From the IMG/VR virus record IMGVR_UViG_2651869724_000014: a stretch of DNA of 46,907 nt. One strand, given 5' to 3'. Positions 40,545 to 43,409 of the stretch are shown one piece after another. The DNA comes from a virus. Lineage: Duplodnaviria > Heunggongvirae > Uroviricota > Caudoviricetes. Made by a program: the position numbers and the translations under genes. The notes under the pieces are model-generated. The model made no database searches, was not told the origin of the DNA, and saw only the letters and a list, made by a program, of their open reading frames with translations. Every line of letters starts with the position of its first letter. Positions within the stretch are counted from its first letter, which is position 1.

Positions 40545-40949
40545 ATGAGTGAAGCTCTTAAGGCACTGAACAATATTCGTATACTTCGCGCACAGGCTCG
40601 TGAAACAGATCTGGCAACTCTGGAAGATATGCTGGAAAAACTCACCACAATCGTTGAAGATCGCCGTGAGGAAGAAAATTCAGCCCGTAAAGAACAAGAA
40701 GAACGTCAGGCTAAACTGGAAGCCTTCCGCCAGAAACTGCTAGAAGACGGTATCGATCCTACAGAACTACTCGCTTCAGTTGGTTCATCTCAACCTAAAG
40801 CAAAATCAACTCGTGCTCCTCGTCCAGCCAAATACAAATATACAAATGAAAACGGCAATGAGCAGACTTGGACGGGTCAGGGCCGTACTCCTAAAGCGAT
40901 CGCTGCTGCTATCGAAGCTGGTAAAACACTGGAAGACTTCGCGCTCTGA
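40545..40949 (+). CDS. H-NS family nucleoid-associated protein (island-encoded paralogue)
   Basis: [33 protein letters not shown]...[40 protein letters not shown] parallels H-NS along its full length. Confidence 0.85.
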
Positions 40950-41291
40950 TCGCAATAAAGCCGTCAATCTAATTTGGCGGTTTCAAATTAAAGAACCTTT
41001 GAGCCTGTCAGTAATTCTGTGTAACTGCCATCGTATTAAAGGTAATCGCTCAGTTCACCGAACTCATTTGAGCCCCAAAAAATCATCCTCCAACCTAACA
41101 TGACTGGCTACTTTCTCTCATTAGTTCTTGACCTAATAAACCTAATAGCAGATCATAAGCTTAGGTGACTACTTAGGATTACGCGGATTTTGTAGTCCTG
41201 TTATAATAATGTGTAATAAGCGCAACTTCTGTATTTTCTTAAAAATTATAAAGATAGCAACTGCTTAAAAGATGCTGTTATGCCTTAGGAG

Positions 41292-41930
41292 ATGAAAATG
41301 CAAACATTTAAAGATGTATTTATAGAACTTGGTGATAAGTCAATAATAGATTTTATTTCTAAGGTTACTGATAACGTTAAATCCTATTGGAGTCGATCAT
41401 ATGAAAGTGAGGAAAACTCAAAATATTTAGGCGAAATTGCTTTTAGCTTTAAAAGGTCAGGTGATAACAGATTACCTGATGCTGGTCTAAGTATTTTCCA
41501 GAAAGAAAATAATATTTGGTATATTCCTAATGTTGTACCTTTAGAAAAAGGACAGCTAAACTACGATGAATATAATACAATAATCACGGATTTTTATAAC
41601 TCGTGCTTAAAACCAGTTGCACTTGAGTTAAAAATTGATATTAAAATAACCTCGGATTCCTTAACTGCAGAAGATGTTGTAGGGGTTTACGCAGGAAAAC
41701 TATTAAAACAATTTTCATCTTTAGCGAATAAATCAACAGGAAGTTCACATCCAAATGATCAAGAAAGATGGTTTGCATTTATTGTAGAAACATGTAAAAA
41801 AGATAAATATGTGAATACTTCTGATCTTGTCCGAGTATTATGTGAACAAGGCTGGAGTGAAGATTCAGCACATAAGCTAGTTATAGAGTATGAGTTTGCA
41901 AGGGACTTAATCACGTACATGGAGCAATGA
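41292..41930 (+). CDS. Hypothetical protein, first gene of a two-gene pair
   Basis: 212-aa ORF, stop 4 bp before next start. Confidence 0.35.
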   Translation: MKMQTFKDVFIELGDKSIIDFISKVTDNVKSYWSRSYESEENSKYLGEIAFSFKRSGDNRLPDAGLSIFQKENNIWYIPNVVPLEKGQLNYDEYNTIITDFYNSCLKPVALELKIDIKITSDSLTAEDVVGVYAGKLLKQFSSLANKSTGSSHPNDQERWFAFIVETCKKDKYVNTSDLVRVLCEQGWSEDSAHKLVIEYEFARDLITYMEQ

Positions 41931-41933
41931 ATC

Positions 41934-42644
41934 ATGTATTTATCAATAAGCAAAGTTAAAGATGAATTGTTGAAAGATGAACAACCAGTATTCTTCTTTG
42001 ATACGTGTTCAATATTAGATATATTAAATTCTATCCATTTACATGGATTGTCAGACTCTTATGCAAACAACATGCTTGAACTTATCAAAATTAACGGTAC
42101 GTCTTGTTGGTTAGTTTCCTGCCAAAACGTTAACGAGGAGTGGATTGATAATATTGATGCTGTTCTTTCCACTATGGATAAAGAAATAAAAAAACTAGAT
42201 CGTAGTATAAGTTCGACAATTAACGTGACCAACTTAGTCTTAAATACAAATTATTCTATGCCACCGAAATTTTCAGGCCTCAATATATCTAGTAAAATAA
42301 AGTCCTTATCAGAACATTTTCTAAAATCTTGTCAGTGTATTGAAAGGACTAATGATCATACGCTGAAAGCAATGCAAAGAGTTCGAAAACTTGAAGCACC
42401 AGCAAGGAAAGGAAAACTTGAGCCAAAAGATTGTGAAATTGTTGAATGCTTTTTAGAATTCTGTCAAGAACTAAGGAAGGCAGGTTTTAATGAAAAAATA
42501 ATATTCGTTACTGCAAATAAAGAAGATTTTGGCTCATACAATGCTCTAAAACCACCACTTGATATTCAATTTGCATCTCATCAAGCACTATTAATCAATA
42601 GTGTAGAACATGTACTTGCACTAGCGAAAAGACAGATAAAATAA
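41934..42644 (+). CDS. PIN-like domain protein (putative nuclease)
   Basis: N-terminal FFFDTCSILDILN plus later acidic positions (DCEIVE, VTANKEDF) resemble PIN catalytic residues. Confidence 0.35.
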   Translation: MYLSISKVKDELLKDEQPVFFFDTCSILDILNSIHLHGLSDSYANNMLELIKINGTSCWLVSCQNVNEEWIDNIDAVLSTMDKEIKKLDRSISSTINVTNLVLNTNYSMPPKFSGLNISSKIKSLSEHFLKSCQCIERTNDHTLKAMQRVRKLEAPARKGKLEPKDCEIVECFLEFCQELRKAGFNEKIIFVTANKEDFGSYNALKPPLDIQFASHQALLINSVEHVLALAKRQIK

Positions 42645-42874
42645 ATATCTAAGGCTTTAGCTTATTTTTCCTAATTTGGCAGAAATTTTTAGATCTATTA
42701 TTCTAAGCAGTTTCTGTCCAGAGATGAGTTATGTCGTTTATATGTATATTTTAGGATCAGGTCATGCTAGATAATAACCACGGTCAGATTTAGTCATTAG
42801 AAAGGCTTTAATACTCAAATCTGAGCTAATCAAACACAGAAAAATAGAAGATCAATTCTATGAGGCTAAGCTTC

Positions 42875-43129
42875 TTAAAATTTTTTTACTTTTGAAATCA
42901 ACCTTACCCACAAAGATTGTTTTTTATCCGTCGATGATGAACAAGGTTCATCGAGTTCACTTTGACCACTCCATAGAGCAAAAAAATCACCATTCTTGTT
43001 ATCTATGGAGAGTTCTTTATCATCATTAACAAGCTGGAGCCATTCTTCACTACTGATTGGAACACTTGCGCTATCGAACCAATGTTCCGTTCTTACTATG
43101 TGAAGCTCCCAGCCCATAACCACCTCCAT
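42875..43129 (-). CDS. Hypothetical small protein
   Basis: ORF only. Confidence 0.25.
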   Translation of the reverse strand: MEVVMGWELHIVRTEHWFDSASVPISSEEWLQLVNDDKELSIDNKNGDFFALWSGQSELDEPCSSSTDKKQSLWVRLISKVKKF

Positions 43130-43166
43130 GTTTTTGATATAGATACGTTATTATACAGAACACTTA

Positions 43167-43409
43167 TCAGTCAATGAGATCTTCTGGCGAAACCCGGTCA
43201 CATGCCATTTTCTCAAGTAATCTTTGTGCTCTTTTCATTTTCAACTTACGCGCTTTTTTATCACCAATCTCCTGATAGTATTCTTCCCGACGTTCGTTAA
43301 CCACGCTCCTGAACTTTTTTAAAAGCTGTTCAAGTGTTTTGAGGTCAGTGGTTGCGGCTTCTGCTTGGATTTTTTTATACATATACATCACATGAAATTC
43401 ATCAATCAT
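43167..43409 (-). CDS. hnsT: Truncated H-NS-like protein (H-NST-like)
   Basis: 80 aa; LKTLEQLLKKFRSVVNERREEYYQ parallels the H-NS N-terminal dimerisation helix, with no DNA-binding C-terminus. Confidence 0.55.
   Translation of the reverse strand: MIDEFHVMYMYKKIQAEAATTDLKTLEQLLKKFRSVVNERREEYYQEIGDKKARKLKMKRAQRLLEKMACDRVSPEDLID

Follow-up and report, generated by a model that had tools for sequence, protein, structure and literature searches.

The H-NS paralogue Hfp and the truncated homologue H-NST on an EARL-family island at tRNA-Asn

Two H-NS-family genes at one locus

We analysed a 46,907-nt stretch of DNA, IMG/VR record IMGVR_UViG_2651869724_000014 (hereafter the window), which carries a genomic island encoding two H-NS-family proteins on opposite strands. 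Both open reading frames (ORFs) lie where a preliminary description, made from the sequence alone, had placed them:

40545-40949, plus strand: hfp (also hnsB or hns2), full-length H-NS-family protein of 134 aa; identified by the Pfam HNS_N and HNS C-terminal domains and by identity to Hfp of uropathogenic Escherichia coli (UPEC) 536
43167-43409, minus strand: hnsT, truncated H-NS homologue of 80 aa with the N-terminal oligomerisation domain only; identified by Pfam HNS_N, alignment with 3NR7 and identity to WP_000564595.1

Gene identities, island family and synteny come from the present analysis, and biochemical activities are taken from published work on proteins of other strains, identical in the case of H-NST and 96% identical in that of Hfp. 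We consider it very probable that the locus belongs to an EARL-family island of about 28.4 kb at tRNA-Asn, a near-identical relative of island IE3 that retains hfp, and that it combines Hfp/H-NSB as silencer with H-NST(EPEC), the form known from enteropathogenic E. coli (EPEC), as anti-silencer.

The 134-aa protein matches both Histone_HNS_N (PF22470, 84.7 bits) and the Histone_HNS C-terminal domain (PF00816, 60.9 bits), as expected of the complete H-NS-family protein proposed for the plus strand, and its TWTGQGRTP motif, the Q/RGR minor-groove motif of the DNA-binding domain, is intact. Alignments of the kind that the preliminary description had proposed gave identities of 59.7% to K-12 H-NS, 50.7% to StpA and 96.3% (129/134 residues) to the UPEC 536 Hfp encoded on the serU island (ECP_1927/WP_001287374.1), from which the window protein differs by T13I, E28D, T86A, D101N and I134L. 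The presence of both domains, the close identity to UPEC 536 Hfp and the location on an EARL or serU-type island are features of the Hfp/H-NSB clade, and we identify the gene as Hfp/H-NSB, an H-NS paralogue of full length that is carried horizontally. The names Hfp, H-NSB and H-NS2 all denote one protein (PMC7544231).

The 80-aa protein matches Histone_HNS_N over residues 1-78 (E = 3.1e-11, 43.4 bits against a curated cutoff of 24.5), with no match to PF00816 in the Pfam search, and its residues 6-79 align with the crystallised H-NS 1-83 construct (3NR7, E = 1.5e-6). The score above the cutoff and the structural-template alignment therefore mark its similarity to H-NS as specific, not that of a generic coiled coil, the outcome that the preliminary description had named as speaking against its reading. 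That description had credited the ORF with an H-NS-like dimerisation helix only; the N-terminal homology stands, but it spans the whole oligomerisation domain, to about H-NS residue 79, rather than a single helix. In both protein and DNA, hnsT is 100% identical to the gene for WP_000564595.1 of EPEC O127:H6 E2348/69, which identifies it as H-NST(EPEC) of island IE3, and the putative anti-silencer is thus the same protein as a published H-NS antagonist. A length of about 80 aa with an N-terminal domain only, together with A16, R60 and R63, is characteristic of H-NST; the window protein has these residues as well as L30 and a lysine/arginine-rich stretch at residues 51-63. Because H-NST and the neighbouring Hfp are only 28.6% identical, we do not regard hnsT as a recent duplicate of hfp. 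Ratios of nonsynonymous to synonymous polymorphism (pN/pS) lie between 0.08 and 0.25 for the two genes in comparisons with enough differences, at 0.08-0.21 for hfp in pairs with nonsynonymous differences and about 0.2 for hnsT, and indicate that both are evolving under purifying selection.

The AT-richness earlier ascribed to the island is borne out by a GC content that is 0.29-0.41 across most of 23-44 kb but about 0.50 in the flanks. To its left, genes for tRNA-Ser(cga) (16218-16307, minus strand) and tRNA-Asn (17299-17374, plus strand) enclose a gene for an MtfA-type M90 peptidase. A 28-nt sequence made up of the last 24 nt of tRNA-Asn and 4 further nt recurs at the right-hand end and sets the limits of the island about 28.4 kb apart, and an invasin-like Big_1 gene starts beyond it at 46058. 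Within and at these limits lie the following elements:

17351-17378, plus strand: attL, 3′ end of tRNA-Asn and left island boundary, first copy of the 28-nt direct repeat
17488-18822, plus strand: island integrase adjoining attL (Pfam Arm-DNA-bind_3, Phage_int_M, Phage_integrase)
20922-22199, plus strand: second integrase, of serU-island type (Arm-DNA-bind_3, Phage_int_M, Phage_integrase; 96% DNA identity to the UPEC 536 serU-island integrase)
39908-40387, plus strand: DUF4756 gene, conserved neighbour upstream of hfp (Pfam, 212.7 bits)
41292-41930, plus strand: variable cargo, 212-aa protein without a match in Pfam, NCBIfam, PADLOC, PHROG or PDB
41934-42644, plus strand: variable cargo, PIN_12 domain protein of 236 aa (Pfam PF16289, 42.5 bits), starting 3 nt past the stop of the 212-aa gene
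42875-43129, minus strand: small ORF immediately downstream of hnsT, listed with 84 aa and annotated in E2348/69 as a gene of 243 nt
43483-44126, minus strand: pair of small conserved ORFs, 118 aa and 100 aa, that separate hnsT from AlpA (matching phrog_19730 and phrog_38005, neither with a known function)
44196-44414, minus strand: AlpA-family excision regulator (recombination directionality factor, RDF), heading the block that ends in hnsT (Pfam Phage_AlpA, 64.2 bits)
44565-45440, minus strand: DUF6387 gene adjoining the RDF gene (Pfam DUF6387, 258.5 bits)
45796-45823, plus strand: attR, direct repeat of the tRNA-Asn 3′ end and right island boundary (27 of 28 positions matching; IE3 homology stops at 45823)

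Both integrases are tyrosine integrases. The 118-aa and 100-aa ORFs are co-directional with hnsT and overlap each other by 16 nt. Further island genes encode PilV and PilS of a type IV pilus, a MobA/MobL relaxase and RepL.

Relation to IE3, the serU islands and the EARL family

The island resembles EARL islands (PMC6035254, PMC7074111) in its insertion at tRNA-Asn with direct repeats, its integrase, its AlpA-type RDF with an adjacent conserved gene, its low GC content, its type IV pilus and MobA/MobL genes, and its 134-aa and 80-aa hns homologues in opposite orientation. Nothing essential differs; only the accessory cargo does (a GmrSD/NsnA-like gene with a HEPN gene, a PDC-M62-like pair and the PIN_12 cassette). 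We class the island as a member of the EARL (ROD21-like) family on its insertion with repeats at the tRNA-Asn 3′ end and its module of integrase, AlpA and DUF6387, the integrase being assigned through its Pfam domains and the identity of the island to IE3. The DUF6387 gene is, by position and size, probably the counterpart of the conserved 843-bp gene adjacent to the RDF gene in EARL islands (PMC6035254). IE3 itself is a listed EARL member (PMC6035254 Table 1), and its excision in E2348/69 has been demonstrated experimentally (PMC6035254). Among 33 EARL islands with a full-length hns homologue, 14 also encode an oppositely oriented truncated one, and lengths of 134 and 80 aa are those of the hns homologues in several E. 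coli EARL islands (PMC6035254); all the full-length homologues of the family are Hfp (PMC7544231).

The closest relation is to IE3 (PMC3897749), with which the window shares not only hnsT but also its neighbours AlpA, the two small ORFs and DUF6387. Identity is 99.6% over 31283-39309 and 99.9% over 41936-45823, and the 2.6 kb between these blocks (39310-41935) is absent from IE3. The missing segment comprises the 3′ part of a 263-aa gene, the DUF4756 gene, hfp, the 212-aa gene and the first 2 nt of the PIN_12 ORF; in the E2348/69 annotation the 263-aa gene is truncated and the PIN gene has a later start. Because the 263-aa gene is truncated in E2348/69, and DUF4756 and hfp are kept in EC01, KBN10P04869 and UPEC 536, the parsimonious reading is that a 2.6-kb deletion removed hfp from IE3 and that the window represents the undeleted form. 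A 5-nt overlap at the IE3 junction (L002 8001-8005) suggests a microhomology deletion in E2348/69. The surroundings of the two islands are unlike: IE3 is flanked on the right by yeeN/amn/shiA, whereas the window island, downstream of mtfA and tRNA-Asn, is followed by the invasin-like gene. Since the right flanks differ, the window island appears to occupy a different copy of tRNA-Asn.

The serU island of UPEC 536 and CFT073 (PMC2814080) shows the same order of DUF4756, hfp, cargo, convergent hnsT, small ORFs, AlpA and DUF6387, and in UPEC 536 it encodes the closely similar Hfp described above. Unlike the window island, that of UPEC 536 is integrated at serU and has a different integrase, and H-NST(UPEC) differs from the window protein at 8 of 80 residues and carries V16, an allele reported to be non-functional (PMC3897749), whereas the window pairs Hfp with the active A16 allele. 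The pair also encloses different cargo, a DUF6404 gene in UPEC 536, two other hypothetical genes in KBN10P04869 and the 212-aa and PIN_12 genes in the window. The last two recur with 89% identity in E. coli E7476 (L033 7104-8447), on a different, conjugative-type element with DotA/TraY genes, where they are again flanked by RepL and a short H-NS-family gene (82 aa); a gene for an adenylate/guanylate cyclase adjoins them, and hfp is absent. Because its contents differ among the window, UPEC 536 and KBN10P04869, and because the cassette travels to E7476, the interval between hfp and hnsT is best described as a variable cargo slot outside any fixed H-NS module.

The 212-aa and PIN_12 cassette thus moves as a unit and possibly serves in defence or as a toxin-antitoxin module, and the slot resembles a cargo hotspot; searches of the two proteins against NCBIfam, PADLOC, PHROGs and PDB sequences returned nothing besides the Pfam PIN_12 match. 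The small ORF downstream of hnsT (42875-43129), which has no family match in the Pfam search, is shorter by 159 nt (53 codons, in frame) in the window and E2348/69 than in EC01 (L001 10577-10978).

Distribution of the pair and proposed action

Among 5426 complete E. coli genomes, hfp-like DNA occurs in 644 and hnsT-like DNA in 508. All of these genomes are among the 718 with a match somewhere in 40300-43600, so that at least 434 genomes contain both. The convergent arrangement is kept in many of them; the cargo found between the genes in the window recurs in that position in one genome only, EC01.

A wider survey covered a collection with one genome per species. An H-NST alignment search, seeded on the conserved H-NST N-terminus only, yielded 27 loci in 27 species, in genera that include Enterobacter, Kluyvera, Serratia, Pectobacterium, Brenneria, Klebsiella, Citrobacter, Salmonella and Erwinia, and 6 kb were inspected on each side. 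Within this distance hfp is intact at three loci, fragmentary at two and absent from 22, and a relaxed search for any H-NS C-terminal domain within 6 kb agreed, finding no further hfp at the 22 loci. An obligate pairing of Hfp with H-NST was rejected on these counts. The fragments, in Enterobacter adelaidei and E. asburiae (L006 8330-8407, a 26-aa N-terminal piece; L013 7976-8215, residues 55-134), lie near an intact hnsT and suggest that hfp has been lost from such islands repeatedly and independently. The association with the excision regulator is far steadier: at all 25 of the 27 loci that have an AlpA match, AlpA is encoded 1.2-2.3 kb upstream of hnsT on the same strand; the 3-7 small ORFs in between run in the same direction, no gap exceeds 180 nt, and the window shares this layout. 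To judge from this spacing, hnsT may be co-transcribed with AlpA. The DUF4756 gene, too, is convergent to hnsT in most related loci, including those that lack hfp.

These comparative data favour an hnsT that acts independently of hfp, its conserved association being with the excision module. One possible, though doubtful, elaboration would make hnsT the fixed last gene of the AlpA block and not the partner of Hfp; anti-silencing would be switched on together with excision and transfer, derepressing the island or aiding its establishment in a new host, with Hfp as an optional add-on and the slot from DUF4756/hfp to hnsT as a hotspot for variable, possibly anti-phage cargo.

H-NST length is 77-86 aa in 24 of 26 readable loci, the exceptions being 62 aa (L016) and 114 aa (L022); one locus on too short a contig (L028) was left out of the length and residue counts, and the latter refer to 27 sequences, 26 copies plus the window. 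Across these, L26, L30, F33, V37 and R41 are invariant (27/27), A16 and R60 are each present in 26/27, and R63 is variable (8/27). We found no H-NS C-terminal domain adjoining hnsT in the 27 related loci. Such constancy bears on the idea that the 80-aa ORF is a decaying hns remnant or a chance ORF without function, for which its shortness and its position 2.2 kb from a full-length paralogue might speak. Length conservation, a pN/pS of about 0.2, the lack of a C-terminal-domain remnant downstream, the low identity to Hfp and the experimental activity of an identical protein (PMC3897749) leave that idea scarcely credible, and we rejected a pseudogene reading on conservation, pN/pS and the missing remnant.

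As summarised in later work (PMC7074111, PMC3897749, PMC6035254), H-NST was first described as an H-NS antagonist by Williamson & Free 2005; according to the first two of these accounts, H-NST(EPEC) derepresses the H-NS-silenced promoters proU and bgl and raises the levels of LEE (locus of enterocyte effacement) proteins. A16V or A16L abolishes its activity, its binding to LEE DNA depends on R60/R63, and mutagenesis showed A16, R60 and R63 to be needed for activity and DNA binding (PMC3897749); a review also names L30 as an important residue (PMC7074111). DNA bridging is inhibited by synthetic N-terminal fragments of H-NS, which suggests the same mode of action for natural inhibitors such as H-NST (PMC5647153). 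Hfp forms heteromers with H-NS, complements hns phenotypes and is encoded by a gene repressed by H-NS (PMC2814080); hfp is up 16-fold in an hns mutant, and the level of Hfp in Salmonella is about one thirtieth that of H-NS (PMC7544231). The published targets lie outside the island, namely proU, bgl and LEE for H-NST and fimbriae, capsule and bgl for Hfp (PMC7074111).

From these activities we propose that Hfp would bind AT-rich DNA, form heteromers with host H-NS and repress an overlapping set of genes while being repressed by H-NS itself. H-NST would form heteromers with H-NS that lack one DNA-binding domain, disrupting silencing filaments or bridges, and would thus behave as a dominant-negative anti-silencer; it would also bind DNA weakly itself, for which it would need R60 and R63. 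In the strain from which the window derives, Hfp would be expected to enlarge the H-NS-like silencing pool and H-NST to cap or poison H-NS-family oligomers; the two may also act on each other and on the island's own genes. A mobile element whose own H-NS-family protein meets the host H-NS pool has a parallel in Sfh, the 'stealth' H-NS homologue of R27/pSf-R27 (PMC7074111, PMC7544231), although Sfh is plasmid-borne and belongs to another clade. Hha-family modulators, by contrast with H-NST, have a different fold and strengthen silencing where H-NST relieves it.

Several observations weigh against the combination of silencer and anti-silencer proposed here. An interaction between Hfp and H-NST is not reported in the literature examined; the window Hfp has I13 and N101, substitutions absent from the three other compared copies (EC01, KBN10P04869 and UPEC 536), which have T13 and D101; and a promoter and terminator scan of 40300-45900 stayed at the level of shuffled sequence (17 promoter-like hits against 17.8, and 4 terminator-like hits against 3.3).

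Whether the island tunes its own silencing through the pair, an idea raised in the discussion of PMC6035254, is a separate matter; because the island is AT-rich and hfp is repressed by H-NS (PMC2814080, PMC7544231), this is plausible, if somewhat weakened by the comparative data. We think it unlikely that the two proteins are co-adapted as a silencer/anti-silencer module that serves mainly to set how strongly the island's own genes are silenced. The co-occurrence of the convergent pair in at least 434 E. coli genomes and the place of hnsT in a co-directional block headed by AlpA fit such a module, as do the two points just given, but outside E. coli hnsT mostly lies without hfp, IE3 has lost hfp and kept hnsT, the genes between the two are variable cargo, and the demonstrated targets of both proteins are outside the island (PMC7074111). 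ROD21, moreover, has the full-length gene only, and phylogeny suggests independent acquisitions (PMC6035254).

In another account, H-NST would chiefly help activators such as Ler by binding DNA with its basic C-terminal tail, instead of being purely a dominant-negative partner of H-NS. Mobility shifts with LEE1 and LEE3 DNA, reduced in R60Q and R60Q/R63Q (PMC3897749), agree with it, and the window H-NST keeps R60, R63 and the lysine/arginine-rich stretch. Yet A16V also abolishes activity (PMC3897749), LEE is presumably absent from most genomes that carry hnsT, and the coiled-coil core is nearly invariant while R63 varies, which points to protein-protein contact as the conserved function of H-NST. 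We therefore rate this account as improbable and retain the dominant-negative action as the preferred one.

Islands that carry their own H-NS paralogue and an antagonist of H-NS can rewire the host's silencing of virulence genes (LEE, fimbriae, capsule). Earlier publications already describe these genes, what they do and that they occur together on EARL and serU islands. The window adds little to this: an IE3-type island that retains hfp, implying that the reference EPEC island is a deletion derivative. The wider comparison further suggests that it is the excision module, rather than hfp, to which hnsT has a conserved link, which will not surprise specialists.

Other cargo and the neighbouring prophage

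At the integrase end (17488-22503), the 3′ end of the first integrase gene occurs again after the second, as a direct repeat of 299 nt (18530-18828 and 22205-22503, 91% identical). Between the two copies lie a HEPN (RiboL-PSP) gene (18889-19605) and a gene resembling GmrSD-N/NsnA (19605-20720; PADLOC NsnA, 277 bits). These genes look like a defence cassette that was inserted, along with the serU-type integrase, into the integrase end of the island or recombined with it. At 30413-32878, an AAA ATPase (506 aa) and an HNH-like protein (310 aa) match PADLOC PDC-M62 A and B (79.9 and 141.1 bits), with weaker matches to Septu PtuA/PtuB, and probably form a further anti-phage cargo module.

Upstream of RepL (38206-39003) lie four 21-nt iteron-like repeats with a spacing of 22-23 nt (38059-38147), two 160-nt repeats that are 84% identical (37158-37317 and 37648-37807), and three copies of a 40-nt element with an inverted repeat (37245, 37735 and 37874). 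The repeats at 37158-38147 may mark the replication origin or the origin of transfer (oriT) region of the excised island.

A lambdoid prophage, distinct from the H-NS island, occupies positions 1-16209 of the window, at the tRNA-Ser gene (serU, 16218-16307). Its genes include, from the tRNA inwards, an integrase (15127-16209), a RecE-like exonuclease VIII fused to a 3′-5′ exoribonuclease domain (12424-14865), an S24 repressor (9917-10555), YdaT (9173-9598), an FRG-domain protein (5995-7329), a DUF968 protein (2883-3932) and the antiterminator Q (1678-2499).

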